Origin: an uncultured Clostridia bacterium
GTDB lineage: Bacteria > Bacillota > Clostridia > Oscillospirales > Oscillospiraceae
Assembly (NCBI GenBank): GCA_947572235.1
Contig: CANPBB010000001.1
Coordinates: forward strand, 1,620-65,619
Length of the DNA stretch: 64,000 bases
Direction: 5' to 3'
Shown piece by piece: positions 47,143-61,700 of this stretch (its first letter is position 1; each line of letters begins with the position of its first letter). The position numbers and the translations under genes are program-made. A model generated the notes under the pieces. It saw only the letters and a list, made by a program, of their open reading frames with translations, was not told the DNA's origin and did no database searches.

Positions 47143-49605
47143 CTACCGCTTCAGCCCCAGCCTCTCCACGGCTTCCTCCCGCATCTTGTACTTCAAGATC
47201 TTCCCCGCCGCGTTCATGGGGAAGCTCTCCACAAACTCCACATAGCGGGGCACCTTGTGCTTGGCCATGTGGGAGAGGACAAACGCCTTCATCTCCTGCT
47301 CCGTCAGGGTCTCCCCCTCCTTCAAAATGACGCAGGCCATGATCTCCTCGCCGTACTGCTCATCGGGCACGCCGATGACCTGCACGTCCCGGACCTTGGG
47401 GTGGGTGTAGATGAACTCCTCGATCTCACGGGGGTAGATGTTCTCCCCCCCGCGGATGATCATGTCCTTCAGCCGTCCTGTGACCTTGAAATTCCCGTTC
47501 TCATCCTCGCAGCACAGGTCCCCGCTGTGGAGCCAGCCGTCGGCGTCGATGGTCTCGGCGGTGGCCTTGGGCATCTTGTAGTAGCCCTTCATGATGTTGT
47601 ACCCTCTGGCCACAAACTCACCGCTGACGCCCACGGGGCACTCCTCCCCGGTGTTGGGGTCGATGATCCTGCACTCCACATTGGCAAACCGGCTGCCCAC
47701 GGTCTCCGTGCGTACGTCCAATGGGTCGTCAAAGCTGCTCATGGTGCACCCCGGGCTGGCCTCGGTCTGCCCGAACACGCTGATGATCTGCTTCATATTC
47801 ATCACATCCGCCGCCTTGCGCATCAGCTCCGGAGGACAGTTGGCCCCGGCCATGATCCCGGTGCGGATATGGGAGAAGTCGGTGTTGGGGAAGTCGGGGT
47901 GGTTCATCATGGCGATAAACATGGTGGGCACGCCGTTAAACGTGGTGATCCGCTCCTGATGGATGCAGGCGAGGGCCGGCTTGGGGGAGAAGTAGGGCAG
48001 CGGGCACATGGTGGCGCCGTGGGTCATGGAGGCGGTCATGGACAGCACCATGCCGAAGCAGTGGAACATGGGCACCTGGATCATCATCCGGTCGGCGGTG
48101 GAGAGGTCCATGTGGTCGCCGATATATTTGCCGTTGTTGACCACGTTGTAGTGGGTGAGCATGACGCCCTTGGGGAAGCCGGTGGTGCCGGAGGTGTACT
48201 GCATATTGGCCACGTCGTGGACCCGCACCGCCGCGGCCCGGCGGCGGACCTCCTGGGGGGACACCCGCCCGGACAGGGCCACGGCCTCGTCCCAGGTCAG
48301 GCACCCCGCCTGCCGGTAGCCCACGGTGACCACGTTGCGCAGGAAGGGCAGGCGCTTGCAGTGCAGGGGCTTGCCGGGCTGGGCGGTGGAGAGCTCGGGG
48401 CACAGCTCGGCGATGATCTCCGCGTAGTGGCTGTCCCGGTAGCTCTCGATCATCACCAGGGTGTGGGTGTCGGACTGGCGCAGCAGGTACTCCGCCTCGT
48501 GGATCTTATAGGCGGTATTCACCGTCACCAGCACCGCGCCGATCTTGGTGGCGGCCCAGAAGGTGATGAACCAAGCGGGCACGTTGGTGGCCCAGATGGC
48601 CACCTTGTCCCCCGGCTTCACCCCCAAGGCGATAAGGCTCCGGGCAAACTGGTCCACGTCGTCCCTAAACTGGGCGTAGGTCCGGGTGTAGTCCAAGGTG
48701 GTGTACTTGAAGGCGTACTGGTCCGGGAACTCCTCCACCATCCGGTCCAGCACCTGCGGGAAGGTGTACTCAATCACCGTGTCCTTCTTCCACACATACT
48801 GCCCTTGGCCCCGTGTGTCATAGTAGAGGTGTTTCTTCCGCCGCTCCCGCTCGAAGCGGGACATGGTCACGGCAAAATGGGTGAGGATCATCTCCAAGTC
48901 CTCCAGCCCGGAAATCCAAGCCGGCTCCCAGAGGAGGGAGAGGTACCCGTCATAGTTGACGCTGCGCAGGGCGTCCATCAGCTCCCGCAGGGGCAGCGCC
49001 CCCTCGCTCAGGAGCTTGTGGTCCCCGCTGTTGTCGGCGTCGGTGAGGCGCACATGGCGGACATAGGCCCCCAAGTTGGTGATGGTCTCCTCCGCCGTCT
49101 CCTTCTGCAGGAGGCAGGTCTCCTGCATATCCCAGCAGGCGGCCAGCTCGTCGCTGGCGAAGTGGTTGAGCACATCCCGGAGCCGCCCGGTGTCCCGCAG
49201 CCCCCCGGCGGTGGAGAGCAGCAGGGTGACGCCGGTGCCCGCGGCCTGTGCCATGGCGCTCCCCACGCCGTCAATCACCTGCCGGATATCCTCGCAGGCG
49301 GTGGAGAGCACCACATAGGGCACCAGCAGGTCCCGCGCGGCCCGTATGGTCTCCGCCACGTCTCCGGCCCCGCCGTTGAGGAAGTCCCCGGCCACAGCGA
49401 TGCAGGGGATCTCCAACCCCTGCCGGCTGAGGCTCCGCCGGGCGGAGAGGGCCATCTCGGGGTTGATGGGGCTGGTCTTAGCCTGGAGCGCTGGGTTGTG
49501 GACAGAGTCGATCTCCACGCCTTGGACACGTGTCTCCGCCGCCGCGGCACAGAAGCCGGCCCAGTCCCCGCTGGACCAGCCGTGGATGGAATAGGAAAGT
49601 TTCAT
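47143..49605 (-). CDS. Fusion protein: xylose-isomerase-like TIM barrel (N-terminus, about 270 aa) plus acyl/aryl-CoA synthetase (AMP-forming) domain
   Basis: The N-terminal part ends in NYDGYLSLLWEP. The C-terminal part has YTSGTTGFPKGV, GWLHSGDL and GRLKDMIIRGGENIYP adenylation motifs. Start MKLSYS behind GGAGG. Confidence 0.88.
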   Translation of the reverse strand: MKLSYSIHGWSSGDWAGFCAAAAETRVQGVEIDSVHNPALQAKTSPINPEMALSARRSLSRQGLEIPCIAVAGDFLNGGAGDVAETIRAARDLLVPYVVLSTACEDIRQVIDGVGSAMAQAAGTGVTLLLSTAGGLRDTGRLRDVLNHFASDELAACWDMQETCLLQKETAEETITNLGAYVRHVRLTDADNSGDHKLLSEGALPLRELMDALRSVNYDGYLSLLWEPAWISGLEDLEMILTHFAVTMSRFERERRKKHLYYDTRGQGQYVWKKDTVIEYTFPQVLDRMVEEFPDQYAFKYTTLDYTRTYAQFRDDVDQFARSLIALGVKPGDKVAIWATNVPAWFITFWAATKIGAVLVTVNTAYKIHEAEYLLRQSDTHTLVMIESYRDSHYAEIIAELCPELSTAQPGKPLHCKRLPFLRNVVTVGYRQAGCLTWDEAVALSGRVSPQEVRRRAAAVRVHDVANMQYTSGTTGFPKGVMLTHYNVVNNGKYIGDHMDLSTADRMMIQVPMFHCFGMVLSMTASMTHGATMCPLPYFSPKPALACIHQERITTFNGVPTMFIAMMNHPDFPNTDFSHIRTGIMAGANCPPELMRKAADVMNMKQIISVFGQTEASPGCTMSSFDDPLDVRTETVGSRFANVECRIIDPNTGEECPVGVSGEFVARGYNIMKGYYKMPKATAETIDADGWLHSGDLCCEDENGNFKVTGRLKDMIIRGGENIYPREIEEFIYTHPKVRDVQVIGVPDEQYGEEIMACVILKEGETLTEQEMKAFVLSHMAKHKVPRYVEFVESFPMNAAGKILKYKMREEAVERLGLKR

Positions 49606-49638: not shown

Positions 49639-49792
49639 CCGCTTCGCCGGGTCCTCAAGCGAGAAGGATTTGCGCCCTGCTCCGCGCACTCGCTTCGCTC
49701 GCACACTGCGCAGGGCGAGAGGATTTTTTGCCGAAAACGCGGTTTCCGGTAAAAATGATTTCCGTTTATTCCGCGTCCGCGGACGCGAACCC
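49639..49792 (-). repeat. Interspersed repeat family B, copy 2
   Basis: The reverse complement aligns to 1655-1806. Palindrome TTCGCGTCCGCGGACGCGGAA at the 49771-49792 end. Confidence 0.8.
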
Positions 49793-49827
49793 CTGCCGGG
49801 GCTTTTCTTTTTCCTCTGGAAAAAGTG

Positions 49828-51243
49828 TTAAAGGCTCTCATAGACAATTTTGTTCAGGGCGCTGATGTAGGCGCGGATGGAGGCGCCGATGATGTCGGTG
49901 GAGATGCCGTTGCCGGAGTAGAGCCGGCCGCCGGAGCGGAGCTTCACCAGCGCGGAGCCCATAGCCTCCCGGCCCTCGGTGACAGTCTGGATCTGGAAGT
50001 CATCCAGCTCGTAGTGGTGGCCGATGATCTGCTCGATGGCCAAAAACGCCGCGTCCACCGGGCCGTCCCCCATGCTGACGCCCTGGAGCTTCTTCCCGTC
50101 CCGCTCCAAGGTGATATTGGCCATGGCGGCCACCCGGTTGCCGTTAGTCACCACATACTGGTCGATCCGATAGGTGGACGGCACTTGGAAAGCGGAGGTG
50201 GCGACGATGGCCTCCAGCTCCTTCACCCCCACAAAGTGCTTCTTGTCGGCGATACGGCGGAAGGCCTCGTAGACCTTGGCGGTGTCCTCCTCACCGAGGT
50301 CATAGCCCATCTGCTTGACCACCTTGGCCACCTCGCCGATGTCGTCCCCGGCGCTGAGGCAGACCCCTGCCATCTCCTCCTGGACGCCGCTGTCGAAGGG
50401 GGAGGTGCTTGACCGCTCGTTCTGCATCCGCCACTGGAGCTGTTTGGCCACCCGCACCAGCTCCGTGGTGCGAAGGCGCGTCCGGATACCGCAGCTCTCC
50501 CCCCGCGCGGTGACGAAGGCGGCAAAGTCCTCCAGCAGCACCGTGTGCAGGGGACTGACGGTGGTCTTGACCACCTCGGCCCCGGCGGCCACCGCGGCGG
50601 CGGCGCAGGCCACGGACATCTTCAGCTCGTCGCTGAGCTCCACGCCGAGGCGCACCCGCTCCAGCGCCGGCGTGCTCTCCCGGAGGGTGCTGAGGAAGGC
50701 CTCCCACTCGAAGGGGGTCATCACCCCGGCGGTGTCACAGAGGGTGATCTCCTCGGCCCCGGCCTCCACCGCAGCGGTGAGGACCTCGCTGAGGAAGGCG
50801 CCCTCCGCCCGGGTGGCGTCCAAGGCGGAGAGGGCCACATGCTCGGTGTAGTACCGGGCCTTCCGCACCAGAGCGGCGGTGAGCTCCACAACGGCGGGCC
50901 CCTTCCTGTGGCAGAGGTACTCCATCTGGATGGCGGAGACGGGCATCAGCACCTGAAGGGCGGGGGACTTGGCGGCCTTCACGCTCTCCCAGGCCTCGGT
51001 GACGCTGTCCTCGCTCATCCCCACGCTGGCCATCACGGCGGCGGAGGCAACCACAGAGGCAATGGTCTTGTTGGTGAGCACATCGGCCTCCTGGCCGTCG
51101 GAGATGGGGGGCAGCTCGATCCGGTCCACGCGGAGCCGGTCCAAGGACCGGGCCAGCTCAATGCGCTCCTTAAAGCTCAGCGCCGCGGCGGACTGATTGG
51201 CCACCTCTCGGAGCGTGATGTCTGCAATTTGAATGGTTTTCAT
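49828..51243 (-). CDS. LeuA/CimA-family (HMGL-like TIM barrel plus LeuA allosteric domain) protein lacking canonical catalytic motifs
   Basis: Start MKTIQIADITLREV behind GAAGGAGA. DTAGVMTP. C-terminal LeuA-dimer-like GDGPVDAAF...GISTDIIGASIRAYISALNK. RDGEQ and HxHNDxG are not present. Confidence 0.85.
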   Translation of the reverse strand: MKTIQIADITLREVANQSAAALSFKERIELARSLDRLRVDRIELPPISDGQEADVLTNKTIASVVASAAVMASVGMSEDSVTEAWESVKAAKSPALQVLMPVSAIQMEYLCHRKGPAVVELTAALVRKARYYTEHVALSALDATRAEGAFLSEVLTAAVEAGAEEITLCDTAGVMTPFEWEAFLSTLRESTPALERVRLGVELSDELKMSVACAAAAVAAGAEVVKTTVSPLHTVLLEDFAAFVTARGESCGIRTRLRTTELVRVAKQLQWRMQNERSSTSPFDSGVQEEMAGVCLSAGDDIGEVAKVVKQMGYDLGEEDTAKVYEAFRRIADKKHFVGVKELEAIVATSAFQVPSTYRIDQYVVTNGNRVAAMANITLERDGKKLQGVSMGDGPVDAAFLAIEQIIGHHYELDDFQIQTVTEGREAMGSALVKLRSGGRLYSGNGISTDIIGASIRAYISALNKIVYESL

Positions 51244-51264
51244 AGGGTGTTCTCCTTCTCTGAT

Positions 51265-51581
51265 GAAAAATAAAAGCGTCCCAAAGACAGAACATACTGT
51301 CTCTGGGACGATAATGGACATTACCGCGGTACCACCCGGATTTGCGCCAAAGGGCGCACACTTATGGGACTCCAGCAAGTCCCTGCCTCTGATAACGGGG
51401 GCCTCCGTGGCCGCCTACTCGCTGGGCGCGCCGCGCCCGCTTTGGGGGACCCTGCTCCAGTGCCAGCCGCCAGACTGCCGCTCCCGGCTCGCACCACCCG
51501 CCGGTTCTCTGAAAGCTGACAAACGTCTGACATAACACCTTCTAAGCATGATATCTTTATTATTTCGGGTTTTGAGGGAAT
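51265..51581 (-). promoter_or_regulatory. T-box riboswitch leader
   Basis: Minus strand has AGAGA, GGGUGGUGCGAGCC, CCCGUUAUC (F-box-like), AAAUCCGGGUGGUACCGCGG (T-box core, 51343-51324), and terminator hairpin CGUCCCAGAGACAG...CUGUCUUUGGGACG plus a U-run. Confidence 0.8.
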
Positions 51582-51587
51582 GTAGGG

Positions 51588-51616
51588 ATTTTACCACACG
51601 GGGTGGAGGCTGTCAA
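51588..51616 (-). promoter_or_regulatory. Sigma-A-type promoter of the T-box leader
   Basis: Minus strand reads TTGACA, 17 nt, TAAAAT. Confidence 0.6.
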
Positions 51617-52345
51617 GAGGGTTTTTTGTGGGGGGGGAGGTGCCCGGCAGGGCACGGTGCTTTTTTCGCGCCGCCGCGGCGCGATTTGGGGACGGGGGTT
51701 TCGCCCCCCGGGGCGACCTGCTTTTCTCGCACGAGAAAAGTAGGCAAAAGCGCGCTTAGGTGTCCGCTCAGGCGGGCTTTAGCCCCCCGCAGGGGGGCAC
51801 AGCCCTGATTCGCGTCCCCCTAAGAACCCCAAGACGCGGCGCAGCTTCGGTAGACTGGTGCGTAGGTTTACTGCGAGCTTCGGACGCGGCGGCGGTAGCT
51901 CTCGCAAAGCAGATGGTACTGGCGAGCGTCCCCCCGTCTTTAGTCCTGCTATAAACCGCCGCTGCCGCTCTGCCTGCCTCGCTTCGACTTGCCTCCGAAA
52001 CTTGAAGGTGGTTTCGCTGTTCGTTGTGCGGCAAATGCCGCCGTACTTGCCGATAATTGTTGTTGTTACGCAAATCTCCGTAGGGCGCGGCAACCCGGCG
52101 CGCCGTTCTTCGTCCACCGGGATGCTCCAACAAACCACCCGTAGGGGCCGGTGTCCTCACCGGTTCACCCCCTAACACCCACCGCACCTCCAATACACCG
52201 TCCCCCGTTAATCGGAATGCTTCGGTAAAACGTGTGTAGGGGCGCACATTGTGCGCCCGCTCTATCGACGCCCGCCGCACTGGGAAGGACAGGCGCACTG
52301 TCCCCGCCGGCTGGGGTGCTCCGATAAGCCGTCCCATATGGCCGT
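51617..52345. repeat. Gene-free array of GC-rich hairpins / REP-like units, including a roughly 300-bp mosaic element
   Basis: CGTAGGGCGCGGCAACCCGGCGCGCC (52079-52104), CGTAGGGGCCGGTGTCCTCACCGG (52140-52163), TGTAGGGGCGCACATTGTGCGCCCGC (52235-52260). 51745-52050 matches 59591-59893 in inverse orientation. Confidence 0.75.
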
Positions 52346-54051: not shown

Positions 54052-54795
54052 TCAGTACAGTGACAAATCACACATCGCCTTCCAATAGCTTTTTCGCTTT
54101 TTAGCCGCCTCCGGGTCCAAGGCCTGGAGGGTGTCCCAGAAGGGGGCGTAGAGAGATTTTTCGTGCTTGAAGATGAAGTCCAGGTCGATCTTGCCCGGGT
54201 GCCGGGCACAGAAGTCCTGCACCTTCCGGGCGAAGCCGGGATAGAAGGCGCGCCAGCAGGCCATGCTGAGCAGGTACTGGGACAGACTGGTGTTTACATA
54301 GGTGAGAATATCCCCGAAGGAGTCATGGAGCCATTTCCACACCGCGCCGGTTTTCAGCTCCACGGCGATATAGGCCACATCCTCGCGTTTCAGCCACTCC
54401 CAGCGCTCATCGGGCGTGCCGGCGCCGCTGATCACGCAGCCGCGGTCCAAGCTCCGGCTCTCGCCGATCACAAGGAGCTTTTTCTTCTTGGCCTGCTCCA
54501 CCCTGAGACAGCTCAGCCAAAAGACCACGCCGGGATACAGGCCGCGCTCCCGCTCCTCATCCGGGCAGCGATAGTCCGCGAAGCAGTCCGGAAGCCCCAC
54601 CTGCGTCAAAAACGCGCAGACTCCCTCCGGCAGCTCCAGCTTCCTGAGCTGAAACCCGACATACCGCCCCAGCGCCGGGTCCGCGAGAAAGTCCGCATCG
54701 GGCTCCAGCCCCGTCCCCGCCGCCTGCGCTTGCTCATAAAACCGAAGCATCTCGGGAAAATCCATCCAATTAGCCCGCCCTGCCTGCTGCCCCAC
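54052..54795 (-). CDS. Hypothetical protein (247 aa), possibly SUKH/SMI1-type immunity-like
   Basis: GTG start behind AGAGGG. My impression of a SUKH-like pattern is weak and unverified. Confidence 0.65.
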   Translation of the reverse strand: MGQQAGRANWMDFPEMLRFYEQAQAAGTGLEPDADFLADPALGRYVGFQLRKLELPEGVCAFLTQVGLPDCFADYRCPDEERERGLYPGVVFWLSCLRVEQAKKKKLLVIGESRSLDRGCVISGAGTPDERWEWLKREDVAYIAVELKTGAVWKWLHDSFGDILTYVNTSLSQYLLSMACWRAFYPGFARKVQDFCARHPGKIDLDFIFKHEKSLYAPFWDTLQALDPEAAKKRKSYWKAMCDLSLY

Positions 54796-55054: not shown

Positions 55055-55130
55055 ATAGGACGTATGAGCACATGCTTTGAGATCGAGGGAACCCAGAGCA
55101 GTATCAATAAAACAGGAGGATGACAAATCT

Positions 55131-58100
55131 ATGGCAAGAAAGTTCAAGTCCATGGACGGCAACAATGCCGCGGCGCACGTATCCTATGCGTTCAGCGAGG
55201 TTGCGGCGATCTATCCGATCACCCCGTCCAGCCCCATGGCCGACCTGGTGGACCAGTGGTCCGCCAACGGCCTGAAGAACATCTTCGGCACCCAGGTGAA
55301 GGTGGTTGAGATGCAGTCCGAGGCCGGCGCCGCCGGTGCGGTCCACGGCTCCCTGGGCGCCGGCGCCCTCACCAGCACCTACACCGCTTCCCAGGGCCTG
55401 CTGCTCATGATCCCCAATATGTACAAGATCGCGGCCGAGCAGCTGCCCACCGTGTTCCATGTCTCCGCCCGTACCGTGTCCACCCACGCGCTGAACATCT
55501 TCGGCGACCACTCCGACGTGATGGCCTGCCGCCAGACCGGCTTCGCCATGCTGGCCGAGGGCAACGTGCAGGAGGTCATGGACCTCTCCCCGGTGGCCCA
55601 CCTCTCCGCCATCAGCGGCAAGGTGCCCTTCATCAACTTCTTCGACGGCTTCCGCACCAGCCACGAGATCCAGAAGGTGGCCGTGTGGGACTTCGAGGAT
55701 CTGAAGGAGATGTGCGACATGGAGGCCGTGGAGGCCTTCCGCAGGCACGCCCTCAACCCCGAGCACCCCAACACCCGGGGCTCCCATGAGAACGGCGACA
55801 TCTTCTTCCAGCACCGCGAGGCCTGCAACAAGTACTACGACGAGCTGCCCGCAGTGGTCGAGAAGTACATGGGCAAGATCAATGAGAAGCTGGGCACCAA
55901 CTACAAGCTCTTCAACTACTACGGCGCTCCCGACGCGGACCGCGTCATCATCGCCATGGGCTCCATCTGCGACGTGGCCGAGGAGGTCATCGACTACATG
56001 AACGCCCGCGGCGAGAAGGTGGGTCTGGTCAAGGTCCGCCTGTACCGCCCCTTCGCCGCCGACAAGCTCATCGCCGCCATCCCCGCCTCCACCAAGAAGA
56101 TCGCGGTCCTCGACCGCACCAAGGAGCCCGGCGCGCTGGGCGAGCCCCTGTATCTGGACGTGGTTTCCGCCCTGGCCAACGCCGGGAAGAACGACGTGAA
56201 GGTCATCGGCGGCCGCTACGGCCTGGGCTCCAAGGACACTCCCCCGGCCAGCGTGTTCGCTGTCTATGAGGAGCTGAAGCTGGACAACCCCCGCCGTCAG
56301 TTCACCATCGGCATCGTGGACGATGTCACCAATCTGTCCCTGCCCGAGAAGGAGGCCCCCAACACCGCCGCGGAGGGCACCATCGAGTGCAAGTTCTGGG
56401 GTCTGGGCGGCGACGGCACCGTGGGCGCCAACAAGAACTCCATCAAGATTATCGGCGACCACACCGACAAGTATATCCAAGCCTATTTCCAGTACGACTC
56501 CAAGAAGACCGGCGGCGTCACCATCAGCCACCTGCGCTTCGGCGACAAGCCCATCCGGTCCCCCTACTATATCAATAAGGCCGACTTCGTGGCCTGCCAC
56601 AACCCCAGCTATGTCACCAAGGGCTTCAAGATGGTCAACGATGTCAAGCCCGGCGGCGTGTTCATGATCAACTGCCAGTGGGATTTTGACGAGCTGTGCC
56701 ACCACCTCAACGCCGAGGCCAAGCAGTATATCGCCAAGAACAACATCCAGCTCTACACCATCAACGCCATTGACCTGGCCGCTCAGATCGGCATGGGCAA
56801 GCGCACCAACACCATCCTCCAGAGCGCCTTCTTCACTCTGGCCAAGGTGATGCCCCAGGCCGAGGCCATCCAGTACATGAAGGACGCCGCCACCAAGTCC
56901 TATTCCAAGAAGGGCATGGACGTTGTGGAGATGAACCACAAGGCCATCGACGCCGGCGCCACCGCCTTTGTGAAGATCGACGTGCCCGCCGACTGGGCCA
57001 ACGCCGTGGACGAGAAGAAGGGCCACGACTTGGAGGGCAAGCCGGAGCTCGTGAAGATGGTCAAGGACATCTTGGAGCCCATCGGCCGCATGGACGGCGA
57101 CAGCCTGCCTGTCAGCGTCTTTATGCCCCACGTGGACGGCCAGTTCGAGCAGGGCGCCAGCGCCTATGAGAAGCGCGGCGTAGCCGTGGCGGTGCCTGTG
57201 TGGGATGCCTCCAAGTGCATCCAGTGCAACACCTGCGCCTATGTCTGCCCCCATGCCACCATCCGCGCCTTCGCCCTCACTGAGGAGGAGGTCAAAAACG
57301 CCCCCGCGGGTCTCAGCGCCGTGGACATCAAGGCCGGCAAGGGCAAGGGCGTCTACCAGTACGCCATCGGCGTCAGCCCCTTGGACTGCATGGGCTGCGG
57401 CGTCTGCGTCGAGGCGTGCCTCGCCAAGGATAAGGCCATCGTCATGGCCCCGCAGGAGAGCCAGGCCGGCCAGCAGGCGGTCTGGAACTATCTGGTCAAG
57501 ACCAGCAAGAAGGCCGACATGCAGGATACCACTGTCAAGGGCAGCCAGTTCATGCAGCCCATGCTGGAGTTCTCCGGCTCCTGCGCCGGCTGCGCCGAGA
57601 CCAGCTATGCCCGTCTTGTGACCCAGCTGTTTGGCGAGCGGATGTACGTCTCCAACGCCACCGGCTGTTCCTCCATCTGGGGCGGTCCCGCCGCCACCAG
57701 CCCCTACTGCACCGATGCGGACGGCCGCGGCCCCGCTTGGTGCAACAGCCTCTTCGAGGACAACGCCGAGCACGGCTTGGGCATGTACACCGGCCAGAAG
57801 ACCATCCGCAACAATCTGGCCGCCAAGACCAAGGCTCTGATCGCTATCGACTGGGCCCTCCCCGCTTTGAAGGAGGCCGCCCAGAAGTGGCTGGACACCA
57901 TGGATGACGGCGCCGCCAACCAAGAGGCCGCCAAGGCCTACATCGCCGCCTTGGAGCAGAGCATCTGCACCATCGACGAGGTGACCGCCTTTGTCAGCAG
58001 CCCCGCCGCCAAGGACACTTTTGGCGACAAGCTGGGCGAGATGCAGGCCCACGCCAAGGCTCTGAAGGAGTCCGGCGCCAAGTTCTGTGACTGCGACGCC

Positions 58101-58799
58101 TGCAAGCTGGTGGCAGAGATTCTGGCCCAGAAGGAGTACCTGAACAAGAAGTCTGTGTGGATCTTCGGCGGCGACGGCTGGGCCTACGACATCGGCTACG
58201 GCGGTCTGGACCACGTGCTCGCCAGCGGCGAGGATGTGAACGTCTTCGTCTTTGACACCGAGGTCTACTCCAACACCGGCGGCCAGGCCTCCAAGGCCTC
58301 CAACATCGGCCAGGTGGCCCAGTTCGCCGCGGCCGGCAAGGAGATGAAGAAGAAGAGCCTCAGCGAGATCGCCATGCAGTACGGCTACGTGTACGTGGCC
58401 CAGGTGGCCATGGGTGCCAACCCCGCCCAGACCATTAAGGCCATCACCGAGGCCGAGGCCTACCACGGCCCGTCCCTGATCATCGGCTACGCCCCCTGTG
58501 AGATGCACTCCATCAAGGGTGGCATGATGAACTGCCAGAAGGAGATGAAGCGTGCGGTTGAGTGCGGCTACTGGAACATGTTCCGCTTCAACCCCGCCGC
58601 CGAGGGCGACAAGAAGTTCATCCTTGACAGCAAGGCCCCCGCCGGCGGCTACCGCGAGTTCCTGCTCAACGAGGCCCGCTATGCCCGCCTGACCCGGGAG
58701 TTCCCGGAGCGTGCCGAGGTTCTGTTCGCCAGAAACGAGGAGGCGGCCAAGGAGCGCTACGAGCATCTGATGAAGCTCACCGAGCTGTATAAGGGCTAA
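55131..58799 (+). CDS. nifJ: Pyruvate:ferredoxin (flavodoxin) oxidoreductase
   Basis: About 1222 aa. MDGNNAAAHVSYAFSEVAAIYPITPSS; two 4Fe-4S ferredoxin motifs (CIQCNTCAYVCP, CMGCGVCVEAC); TPP-binding GGDGWAYDIG. AGGAGGA SD. Confidence 0.96.
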   Translation: MARKFKSMDGNNAAAHVSYAFSEVAAIYPITPSSPMADLVDQWSANGLKNIFGTQVKVVEMQSEAGAAGAVHGSLGAGALTSTYTASQGLLLMIPNMYKIAAEQLPTVFHVSARTVSTHALNIFGDHSDVMACRQTGFAMLAEGNVQEVMDLSPVAHLSAISGKVPFINFFDGFRTSHEIQKVAVWDFEDLKEMCDMEAVEAFRRHALNPEHPNTRGSHENGDIFFQHREACNKYYDELPAVVEKYMGKINEKLGTNYKLFNYYGAPDADRVIIAMGSICDVAEEVIDYMNARGEKVGLVKVRLYRPFAADKLIAAIPASTKKIAVLDRTKEPGALGEPLYLDVVSALANAGKNDVKVIGGRYGLGSKDTPPASVFAVYEELKLDNPRRQFTIGIVDDVTNLSLPEKEAPNTAAEGTIECKFWGLGGDGTVGANKNSIKIIGDHTDKYIQAYFQYDSKKTGGVTISHLRFGDKPIRSPYYINKADFVACHNPSYVTKGFKMVNDVKPGGVFMINCQWDFDELCHHLNAEAKQYIAKNNIQLYTINAIDLAAQIGMGKRTNTILQSAFFTLAKVMPQAEAIQYMKDAATKSYSKKGMDVVEMNHKAIDAGATAFVKIDVPADWANAVDEKKGHDLEGKPELVKMVKDILEPIGRMDGDSLPVSVFMPHVDGQFEQGASAYEKRGVAVAVPVWDASKCIQCNTCAYVCPHATIRAFALTEEEVKNAPAGLSAVDIKAGKGKGVYQYAIGVSPLDCMGCGVCVEACLAKDKAIVMAPQESQAGQQAVWNYLVKTSKKADMQDTTVKGSQFMQPMLEFSGSCAGCAETSYARLVTQLFGERMYVSNATGCSSIWGGPAATSPYCTDADGRGPAWCNSLFEDNAEHGLGMYTGQKTIRNNLAAKTKALIAIDWALPALKEAAQKWLDTMDDGAANQEAAKAYIAALEQSICTIDEVTAFVSSPAAKDTFGDKLGEMQAHAKALKESGAKFCDCDACKLVAEILAQKEYLNKKSVWIFGGDGWAYDIGYGGLDHVLASGEDVNVFVFDTEVYSNTGGQASKASNIGQVAQFAAAGKEMKKKSLSEIAMQYGYVYVAQVAMGANPAQTIKAITEAEAYHGPSLIIGYAPCEMHSIKGGMMNCQKEMKRAVECGYWNMFRFNPAAEGDKKFILDSKAPAGGYREFLLNEARYARLTREFPERAEVLFARNEEAAKERYEHLMKLTELYKG

Positions 58800-58870: not shown

Positions 58871-60190
58871 AAAAAAGAGCGTTGTTTTCGCGTGTTTTTT
58901 GATAAAAAACGGGGGAATTCCCCTGTTTTTGAGGAATATGTTTGCATCGAAACAGGCAACTTGTTGCACGCTCCCCCGCCGGAGAAGCGGGGGGAGGAGC
59001 GTGAGATCCGCCCCTACGATGGTTGATCGGGCCATCCCGGTGGACGGGGGACGGCGCGCCGGGGGATATGCCCTGCCGGTTGACGGGGAGCGGCACGCCG
59101 GGGGTGGGGAACGGGCCGGTGAGGATACCAGCCCCTGCGGGTGGGCTATCGGGAGTGCCTGCGAGGAATCCCGCCACCGCCGTTCGGCGGCCCCCTCATC
59201 TCGGCCTAAGAGCCTGTTTAAAATCTTCCTGCGCATGTCTTGGCGGCGTATTTTCCGCCCTGACTGCGTTAAAAATCCTTGCCATCCGTCAGGATGCCTG
59301 CGGATTTTTGCCTTGCAGGGCAAAAAATCCACTCGCCAATCCATACACGTCGAGATATTAAACAGGCTCTTAGAGCCGCCCTTTGGGGCGGTTGGCCTCG
59401 AAACGTGCCTGTGGGCGCCGCCTTCAGCAAGGGAGCCAGGGGGCGAAACGCCATAATCGCCCAGCCCCGGTGCGGTGGGTGTCCAGAGAGCGGACGCACA
59501 ATACCCGCAGGGATACGCCGCATCTGTAAGGGGCAGAGCCGCCAACGGCTGCGCTGTGTGCGCCCCTACAGACGGTATACTGACAGTACCGGAAGGCACG
59601 GCGGCATTTGCTGCACTGGGCCGGAGGTTTGACCTCTAAGTTTCTAAAACAAGTCGGGCAACGGAGGCAGAGCGGCAGCGGACGCCTACAGCATGGCCAT
59701 AGACGGAGGGACGCTCGCCAGTACCGTCCCGCTGAGCGGGAGCAACCGCCGCCGCGCGGGGTGCGCTGAGGTTGGATGAGCGCCGGGCTGTCGAGGGGGC
59801 TATGGTTCTTAGGGAGGGAGCGAATAAGGGCTGCGTCCCACCGCGGGTGGGGCTAAAGCCCGCCTGAGCGGACTCCCAAGCGCGCTTTTGCAGGCTTGGT
59901 CAGAGAGCCAAAAAGGAAAGGATGTGTGAAGGAAAACCATTCGGTTTTCCTTCATGTTCAATCAACCCGCCCCAGCGACAGATTTTGGCATCCCGCCAAA
60001 ATCTGTTGGGTCTGGGGGCCCTGTCCCCAGACCCAGTCGCTTGGGGCGAAACCTCCGTTCCCAAACCGCGCGGAAAAGTCTTGGTACTGCGCCGCAGTAC
60101 CCCCCGCCGCGGGACGCGACGGCAGAAGGGGGCCAGCCCCGCCCTGCCCCGGCCCCGCCCTACCCCAACCCAACTCTTCTGCCAAAAAGA
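58871..60190. repeat. 1.3-kb gene-free array of consecutive GC-rich hairpins / REP-like units plus a mosaic element
   Basis: Dozens of short palindromes, e.g. GAAGGAAAACCATTCGGTTTTCCTTC, CAGATTTTGGCATCCCGCCAAAATCTG, GGTACTGCGCCGCAGTACC. GTAG/GCAG-GGGC units near 59010, 59140 and 59565. Confidence 0.75.
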
Positions 60191-61489: not shown

Positions 61490-61700
61490 CGTCCCTTGGG
61501 GCGGGCGGACGGCCTGCCGGAGCGTTTTGTCCGGCGGGGACGGCGCGCCCTACGGGCGGGCTATCGGGAGTGCGGTGGATATCGGGGAACAGGCCGGTGA
61601 GGACACCGGCCCCTACGGGTGGGTTTGACGGACCATCCCGGCGCCGGGAGAACGGTGCCCTGCCGGGCGCTTTTCGCGCTGCCCCAGCGGCGGAATCCCC
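61490..61700. repeat. REP-like hairpin cluster upstream of the mfd promoter
   Basis: GGACGGCGCGCCCTACGGGCGGGCTATCGGGAGTGC and GGCCGGTGAGGACACCGGCCCCTACGGGTGGG match modules at 59050-59170 and 52080-52165. Confidence 0.7.

Follow-up and report, generated by a model that had tools for sequence, protein, structure and literature searches.

The window analysed here is a 64,000-nucleotide stretch of DNA from an uncultured Clostridia bacterium of the Oscillospiraceae (GenBank assembly GCA_947572235.1, contig CANPBB010000001.1, positions 1,620 to 65,619). It carries an open reading frame (ORF) for a protein resembling 2-isopropylmalate synthase (LeuA), which is preceded by a T-box leader and followed by the gene of a fused acyl-CoA synthetase, called the ligase below. 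The elements of this operon, from promoter to ligase, are as follows.

51588..51616 (-), sigma-70-type promoter of leader and operon: TTGACA, 17-nt spacer, TG-TAAAAT
51301..51553 (-), T-box riboswitch leader (RF00230): 84.7 bits, model positions 1-219 covered
51464..51466 (-), specifier codon CUG (Leu) in the Stem I specifier loop, from the Rfam alignment; then G and a 4-bp helix CACU
51325..51337 (-), T-box sequence GGGUGGUACCGCG, with a UGGU bulge predicted to pair with the tRNA 3' end, discriminator base A
51277..51310 (-), intrinsic terminator of the leader: 14-bp stem, then U-tract CTTTTATTTT
49828..51243 (-), putative LeuA-derived pseudoenzyme gene, 471 aa (Pfam, NCBIfam, structure alignments, family alignments, AlphaFold)
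50446-51234 (-), HMGL-like barrel, residues 4-266 (Pfam PF00682, 2.4e-34)
49846-50223 (-), LeuA_dimer regulatory domain, residues 341-466 (Pfam PF08502, 6.3e-31, 5-130 of 131 model positions)
49663..49806 (no strand), 144-nt dispersed repeat lying between the LeuA-like and ligase genes, with an 83% complementary copy in inverted orientation at 1641-1784
47143..49605 (-), TIM-barrel/acyl-CoA synthetase fusion gene, probable start ATG 49605, 820 aa; longest ORF from GTG 49704
~48925-49548 (-), AP_endonuc_2 domain (xylose-isomerase-like TIM barrel) of the ligase (Pfam, 1.6e-11)
~47578-48747 (-), AMP-binding domain of the ligase (Pfam PF00501, 1.6e-93)
~47200-47427 (-), AMP-binding_C domain of the ligase (Pfam PF13193, 3.3e-19)

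The longest frame of the LeuA-like ORF is 49828..51378 (-); homologues and a ribosome-binding site back a start at ATG 51243, which gives the N-terminus MKTIQIADITLREVANQ. A reading made from the sequence alone had proposed an HMGL-like barrel with a LeuA-dimer-like C-terminus, and the two Pfam matches bear this out. The motifs on which it drew (DTAGVMTP, GDGPVDAAF, GNGISTDIIGASIRAYISALNK, ITLREVANQ, and VELSDELK) are all found in the translation. All 24 LeuA, CimA, and NifV matches in NCBIfam fall under their cutoffs, which are 532 to 748 for the LeuA models. LeuA equivalogs are the top matches, with scores of 223 to 280 bits (the best 279.8 against a cutoff of 532), followed by NifV with 95 and CimA with 63 bits. 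Because the LeuA equivalogs outscore CimA and NifV, the scores place the descent of the protein within the short bacterial LeuA type. Ancestry from CimA or homocitrate synthase was dropped on the same scores.

Loss of the catalytic site and retention of the regulatory domain

Residues were mapped through HMMER alignments to 3RMJ and 6E1J and read with the residue roles published for 6E1J (PMC11532901). Asp90, His288, and His290 of 6E1J are the metal ligands; Arg89 and Thr257 bind the 2-oxoacid, Gln93 bridges substrate and CoA, and Glu227 positions Tyr399 and His388 (PMC11532901), the stacking residue and the general base. The equivalents in the LeuA-like protein are these.

Asp90 (metal ligand): E13
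His288 (metal ligand): E202
His290 (metal ligand): S204
Arg89 (2-oxoacid): R12, kept
Gln93 (substrate/CoA bridge): N16
Glu227: L141
Thr257 (2-oxoacid): T171

In the alignments to 3RMJ and 6E1J the GLGERAGN segment is replaced by SPLH with a 4-residue deletion. The segment HxSGIHQDG...Y of accessory subdomain I, which carries His388 and Tyr399, is deleted: about 10 residues stand in place of the canonical 40 or so, and about 30 are missing. The sequence-only reading had reported the metal- and 2-oxoacid-binding Asp and His residues and a GIGERAGN-type segment as absent, and both observations stand. The catalytic loss is wider than that reading saw, since the Glu227 equivalent and the His388/Tyr399 segment are gone as well.

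The same positions were followed through 106 family representatives with pairwise identity of at most 50%, and through a second alignment of 14 representatives. The three metal-ligand positions are unconstrained across the 106. Position 13 is occupied by E18/Q13/N11/K10 and others; position 202 across the representatives is E, Q, S, or C, and position 204 is mostly S. His occurs at neither 202 nor 204 in the 14 aligned representatives, nor is it among the four commonest residues there in the 106. The HxSGIHQDG...Y segment is gone from 14 of 14 aligned representatives; the canonical P0254 in the same alignment retains HSSGVHQAG, together with DTTLRDGEQ, HCHND, and GERAGN. The alignments show the catalytic columns lost, with no shifted Asp/His/His ligand set in the LeuA-like family, the result that the sequence-only reading had named as one that would speak against it. 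An arginine at the R12 position is invariant in DRE-TIM metallolyases. In this window and its close relatives it is R12, and the position reads R35/K26/C17/A6 in the 106 representatives; the aligned arginine is Arg89 in BjMAMS and Arg80 in MtIPMS.

The LeuA-like family is present in at least 588 genome loci. The taxon labels, which come from records of metagenome-assembled genomes (rumen and gut) and are not fully reliable, are mostly Oscillospiraceae, Acutalibacteraceae, Lachnospiraceae, Ruminococcus, and Christensenellaceae. Searching 1.8 billion representatives with a profile yields about 120 full-length family clusters (50% identity) of 455-480 aa, which match as a single stretch with scores from 598 down to about 300 bits. 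Canonical-like LeuAs (~500-516 aa) rank below them and match in two stretches. Such conservation indicates that the family is under purifying selection. Gene decay was dropped as an explanation, the ORF being full-length and conserved in hundreds of genomes.

On this evidence the LeuA-like protein has very probably lost synthase activity. The earlier proposal of a pseudoenzyme or a repurposed ligand-binding protein is supported by catalytic positions that are missing and free to vary in a protein that is nevertheless full-length and conserved. Family members are labelled "2-isopropylmalate synthase" by JGI and "hypothetical protein" by NCBI. The protein has the LeuA fold and ancestry without the defining catalytic features and is not to be filed as isopropylmalate synthase; counting the family as LeuA in metabolic reconstructions leads to a leucine pathway step being wrongly inferred. 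Three other LeuA-like proteins of ~500 aa (P0244, P0265, and P0266) have the HxH and GERAGN-type motifs mostly present and the HxSGIH general-base motif absent, and P0265 has HSQ at the HxH position and DSTLCEGER where DTTLRDGEQ is expected. These three may represent a further LeuA-like group that is degenerate in part.

The regulatory domain is the best-conserved part of the family, with a mean top-residue frequency of 0.70 compared with 0.46 for the barrel among the 106 representatives. Two loops, G392-D-G394-P395 and G444-x-G446-x-S448-T449-D450, are nearly invariant (93-100% conserved), and alignment shows that canonical LeuAs carry the same two Gly-rich loops. In the AlphaFold model both lie where the two helices of the beta-beta-beta-alpha units begin, at their N-termini; DSSP assigns these units strands E359-366, E373-381, and E384-392 with helix H395-407, then strands E412-421, E428-437, and E440-448 with helix H451-470. 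MtIPMS holds the leucine carboxylate at the helix N-termini of its beta-beta-beta-alpha units (PMC11057210; the site is also in PMC10464499). By this likeness, we infer that the LeuA-like regulatory domain binds L-leucine. In the barrel, residues D8, T10, S103, E108, Y109, K114, D142, R145, and D170 show 92% conservation or more in the 106 representatives; F24 excepted, the strongly conserved barrel residues are common to canonical LeuA (P0254 or 3RMJ).

The model was computed from a 72-sequence alignment and has a mean predicted local distance difference test score (pLDDT) of 83; a model built on 21 sequences had the second beta-beta-beta-alpha unit wrongly folded (pLDDT <50), which the larger alignment corrected. 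Foldseek superimposes the model barrel on the LeuA barrels 3EWB and 3EEG with TM scores of 0.90-0.91 (root-mean-square deviation ~2 Å) and aligns the full chain to M. tuberculosis LeuA 3HPS/3FIG over ~540 columns. A phmmer search of the PDB with the C-terminal 146 residues returned no LeuA regulatory domain; Foldseek with the 72-sequence model did align one.

The leucine T-box leader and the partner ligase

The leader sits between an upstream comM-like gene and the LeuA-like ORF. Its promoter matches the hexamers at 11 of 12 positions and has the extended -10 TG; the region searched holds 3 promoter sites against 0.6 expected from shuffles. The leader comprises Stem I with K-turn, specifier loop, AG bulge, and distal loop, followed by the UGGU and the terminator, which in the Rfam alignment overlaps with the antiterminator region's 3' strand. 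Its score, with an E-value of ~1e-18 to 4e-19, lies under the Rfam gathering score of 93: scanning the whole window at the gathering threshold gave no match, and the T-box surfaced only in E-value mode. Orthologous leaders reach the gathering score in 11 of the 11 loci scanned with Rfam (93.1-133.9 bits).

Of 83 non-redundant related loci, 57 have a T-box motif directly 5' of the LeuA-like gene, and every readable leader among these 57 has a Leu specifier (CUC or CUG). C and T are invariant as the first two specifier bases of 45 aligned leaders, with C or G as the third (CUC/CUG). The specifier was taken as the three bases before the last unpaired loop base, a rule checked on five Rfam alignments. 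Calls made by regular expression alone gave spurious codons, and 12 and 13 leaders in two leader sets were read by eye. We regard the operon and its Leu T-box as real, with very little doubt. With this leader upstream, the LeuA-like gene is predicted to be induced by uncharged tRNA-Leu, that is, to be on when leucine is scarce.

Several observations concern the DNA upstream of such leaders. The comM-like gene and the T-box promoter are separated by an apparently empty 0.74 kb composed of short repeated intergenic elements (51744-52203) that recur at 59658-59891 and 61554-61625; Pfam gave no match for a 189-aa ORF in this gap (51768-52337). In one subgroup of loci (L015, L017, L025, L029, and L030) the Leu T-box is closely preceded by a class II aldolase-family gene, ~1.2 kb 5' of the LeuA-like gene.

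The fusion ligase gene is 3' of the LeuA-like gene in 79 of the 79 related loci with room for it, whatever the other neighbors. The spacer has a median of 3 nt in these loci, and 26 of the 79 pairs overlap by 1-4 nt, a pattern typical of subunits that are made together and, in the related loci, translationally coupled. The spacer in the window, at 222 nt, is atypical because the 144-nt dispersed repeat has inserted into it. In NCBIfam the ligase matches PRK12583 ("fatty acid CoA ligase family") best, at 685 bits where the cutoff is 832, and its top PDB matches are fatty-acyl-, feruloyl-, and malonyl-CoA synthetases. Conservation is 0.57 in the N-terminal barrel compared with 0.82 in the AMP-binding part, and the barrel residues that align with the customary His and Glu metal ligands are not conserved. 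This barrel may also be non-catalytic, in which case the operon would encode two degenerate TIM barrels.

Gene neighborhoods and the ligases behind Ile and Val T-boxes

All flanking ORFs of the 83 loci were clustered and the recurrent ones scanned with Pfam. Counted as co-directional neighbors, the following genes recur.

26/83 loci: 2-oxoacid:ferredoxin oxidoreductase (three-subunit or single-chain PFOR type)
16/83 loci: class IV (branched-chain) aminotransferase
23/83 loci: Amidohydro_2 (PF04909), immediately 3' of the fusion ligase, e.g. L021 9957-10772
21/83 loci: small ParA/CbiA-like P-loop protein
29/83 loci: extra ligase paralogs

The extra paralogs are HTH(XRE)-Cupin_2-AMP-binding fusions (HTH, helix-turn-helix) whose top NCBIfam match is MbcS, at 413-428 bits against a cutoff of 850. 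They are preceded by T-boxes of their own, detected with Rfam. In L051 and L026 the Rfam alignments give the specifier AUC (Ile) before the first ligase paralog and GUC (Val) before the second. Regular expressions and manual reading together extend this to about 25 loci with an Ile (AUC) T-box and about 9 with a Val (GUC/GUA) T-box; the specifier of the second ligase leader in L060 is ambiguous. The Ile and Val leaders have the T-box motif GAGTGG where the Leu motif search used GGGTGG. HTH-cupin ligases lie at L051 489-5646 (-), L026 10058-13401, L034 369-5401 (-), and in about 25 other loci, and a tetrahydrofolate riboswitch is found at L026 3597-3697. No description of the HTH(XRE), Cupin_2, and MbcS-like ligase architecture or of its regulation was found.

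An extended arrangement is illustrated by L053 1549-10730, in which one Leu (CUC) T-box heads an operon for the P-loop protein, the three oxidoreductase subunits (orA, orB, and orG), the branched-chain aminotransferase, the LeuA-like protein, the ligase, and Amidohydro_2. Similar long operons occur in L044, L056, L073, L075, L077, L078, and L082, and the P-loop gene is nearly always just 5' of the oxidoreductase alpha gene. No second LeuA, leuABCD, branched-chain aminotransferase, three-subunit oxidoreductase, or Amidohydro_2 gene was found within the window. It does contain one oxidoreductase of the other type.

55077..58799 (+), single-chain PFOR-type 2-oxoacid:ferredoxin oxidoreductase, 1240 aa (Pfam); 3.8 kb upstream, on the opposite strand

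This gene shares 56% identity with the PFOR-type gene directly 3' of the ligase in 13 other loci, and we treat it as context only as regards the LeuA-like/ligase system. At 54052-54795 (-), between it and the comM-like gene, is an ORF whose product matches a SUKH-4 immunity-protein domain (2.3e-12).

A proposed leucine arm of branched-chain acid assimilation

We interpret the LeuA-like protein as a LeuA paralog that no longer catalyzes and that belongs to the leucine arm of a pathway under T-box control, from branched-chain fatty acids to branched-chain amino acids, where it would be the leucine-sensing partner of an isovalerate-CoA ligase; to this reading as a whole we assign a probability of about 50%. 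Its two components differ in strength: the role in a pathway from fatty acid to amino acid is likely, and the leucine-sensor role is a tentative proposal to which we would give somewhat less than even odds. The protein would have given up the Claisen condensation and kept the barrel scaffold and the almost invariant leucine-type regulatory domain. Under leucine scarcity, uncharged tRNA-Leu would act on the T-box leader to switch the LeuA-like/ligase pair on. The pair would form the leucine arm, and the MbcS-like ligases behind the Ile and Val T-boxes the other two, each ligase activating a branched-chain volatile fatty acid. The Leu T-box and the parallel Ile and Val arms point to isovalerate as the substrate of the partner ligase, which would yield isovaleryl-CoA. 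A ferredoxin-dependent 2-oxoacid oxidoreductase would reductively carboxylate this to 2-oxoisocaproate, and a branched-chain aminotransferase would convert the latter to leucine. The dead LeuA would serve as a leucine-binding regulatory subunit that exerts fast feedback on the committed, ATP-consuming ligase step. The anabolic direction is favored because expression is linked to a shortage of the product; catabolic use would destroy scarce leucine.

Published work agrees with parts of this scheme. Purified MbcS activates 2-methylbutyrate and isobutyrate and uses isovalerate poorly (PMC10026030), a range that fits MbcS-like ligases in the Ile and Val arms and a ligase of another subfamily in the Leu arm. 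In rumen physiology, carboxylation of isovalerate followed by amination yields leucine (PMC7356843).

A number of points weigh against this interpretation. The oxidoreductase and the aminotransferase are missing from most loci, the operon in the window included. The barrel is still moderately conserved (the nine residues listed above, and F24), and therefore must do something. The only grounds for leucine binding are loops common to canonical LeuA, and these could be conserved for dimerization or partner contact instead. The ligase scores below every NCBIfam cutoff and its substrate is read from context only, just as the physical complex with the LeuA-like protein is deduced from gene coupling. 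The AP_endonuc_2 barrel and Amidohydro_2 have unexplained roles and could indicate a different chemistry. Finally, leucine binding, the pathway direction, and control over the ligase are all deduced from sequence and context.

Other explanations were also considered. The tight coupling of the two genes suggests a stoichiometric complex, which would also be expected if the LeuA-like protein were a non-catalytic scaffold or chaperone that stabilizes the ligase or couples it to the 2-oxoacid:ferredoxin oxidoreductase. The remnant barrel pocket would then hold, for example, isovaleryl-CoA or 2-oxoisocaproate, and the regulatory domain would be an interaction surface only; LeuA barrel residues that contact substrate or are structural are indeed kept (R12 in close relatives, T171, and D142/R145), and Pfam also describes LeuA_dimer as a dimerization domain. 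Arg12 and other pocket residues vary across the wider family, however, constraint is strongest at the two loops that make up the ligand site of canonical LeuA, and the Ile and Val ligase arms work without any LeuA-like protein; we consider a scaffold unlikely. T-box operons usually encode enzymes or transporters, and the protein might accordingly be a real enzyme with a new, metal-independent chemistry on a leucine-pathway intermediate, acting alongside the AP_endonuc_2 barrel and Amidohydro_2, for instance in an alternative making or processing of a branched 2-oxoacid or acyl-CoA. The nine barrel residues at 92% or more and the co-occurrence of the unexplained TIM barrel and Amidohydro_2 genes with the LeuA-like gene would agree with such an activity. 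Yet apart from F24 the conserved barrel residues are those of canonical LeuA, with no new conserved polar cluster, the accessory-domain lid bearing the general base is deleted, and Amidohydro_2 accompanies only 23 of the 83 loci, all of which makes a new enzyme improbable.

The cassette might also serve lipid rather than amino acid synthesis. It would make isovaleryl-CoA as primer for iso-branched membrane fatty acids under leucine scarcity, leucine being the normal primer source, and the dead LeuA would play the same part as in our preferred scheme. MbcS does likewise in S. aureus: the paralogous ligases resemble this demonstrated supplier of branched-chain fatty acid primers (PMC10026030, PMC11167679). 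Most loci, moreover, have the pair only, without oxidoreductase or aminotransferase. The extended clusters, in contrast, place these two enzymes in the same operon, in L053 behind the same Leu T-box, and running them catabolically in leucine starvation would waste leucine. T-boxes, in addition, typically control the supply of the cognate aminoacyl-tRNA. For these reasons primer supply appears a doubtful alternative to the assimilation of isovalerate into leucine.

Among known systems, the closest relative of the LeuA-like protein is short-form LeuA (TIGR00973/PRK00915; 3RMJ, 3EWB; M. tuberculosis 1SR9/3FIG), which has the same order of barrel, subdomain II, and a domain built from a pair of beta-beta-beta-alpha units. 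The barrels share 27-30% identity with TM scores of 0.84-0.91, and the loops GDGPxDA and GxGxSTD are common to both. The LeuA-like protein differs in lacking the metal ligands, the Glu227 equivalent, GERAGN, and the subdomain I His/Tyr segment, and is ~40 residues shorter; its gene is always followed by that of the acyl-CoA ligase and not by leuBCD. The plant methylthioalkylmalate synthase MAMS (6E1J), the top Foldseek match (E 3e-25), is likewise a LeuA-derived paralog in a new role and forms the mirror image, having kept catalysis and lost the regulatory domain, the reverse of the LeuA-like family. HisZ, an inactive paralog of the histidyl-tRNA synthetase HisRS, is the regulatory subunit of short-form HisG. 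The two cases are alike in that a dead paralog of an amino-acid-recognizing enzyme is encoded beside the enzyme it serves, a functional analogy only: fold and partner are unrelated, and the regulatory role is demonstrated for HisZ and inferred for the LeuA-like protein. At locus L003 a tRNA-synt_His gene precedes hisG.

The S. aureus branched short-chain acyl-CoA synthetase MbcS is the nearest model for the Ile and Val T-box ligases, which differ from it in scoring under its cutoff and in carrying N-terminal HTH and cupin domains. The dead LeuA has a partner ligase from a different AMP-binding subfamily (PRK12583-like). For MbcS, which feeds fatty-acid synthesis, no T-box control is known. The leader itself has the architecture of the Leu T-box leaders of Firmicutes (leuS, ilv-leu operon; RF00230), with a CUN Leu codon; no earlier mention of the LeuA-like/ligase pair as a T-box target was found in the searched literature. 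Nor was a description found of the LeuA-like family, of branched-chain fatty-acid ligases under T-box control, or of genes or regulation for the carboxylation route in Clostridia, in a search outside which most subscription journals lay, so that earlier work is possible.

That Firmicutes of the rumen and gut require or use isovalerate, 2-methylbutyrate, and isobutyrate, turning them into branched-chain amino acids by carboxylation, is long-standing knowledge. As a broader and more speculative proposal, which we think possible but would not yet favor, the LeuA pseudoenzyme would be an allosteric leucine sensor gating an isovalerate-CoA ligase and, together with the MbcS-like HTH-cupin ligases behind the Ile and Val T-boxes, the oxidoreductase, and the aminotransferase, would define the hitherto unassigned genes by which gut and rumen Clostridia reductively carboxylate branched-chain volatile fatty acids to give Leu, Ile, and Val. 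The locus and its relatives offer a testable gene set for this route: three ligases under amino-acid-specific T-boxes, a 2-oxoacid:ferredoxin oxidoreductase, and an aminotransferase. The LeuA-like protein would at the same time be a clean example of an enzyme paralog that keeps only its allosteric domain.

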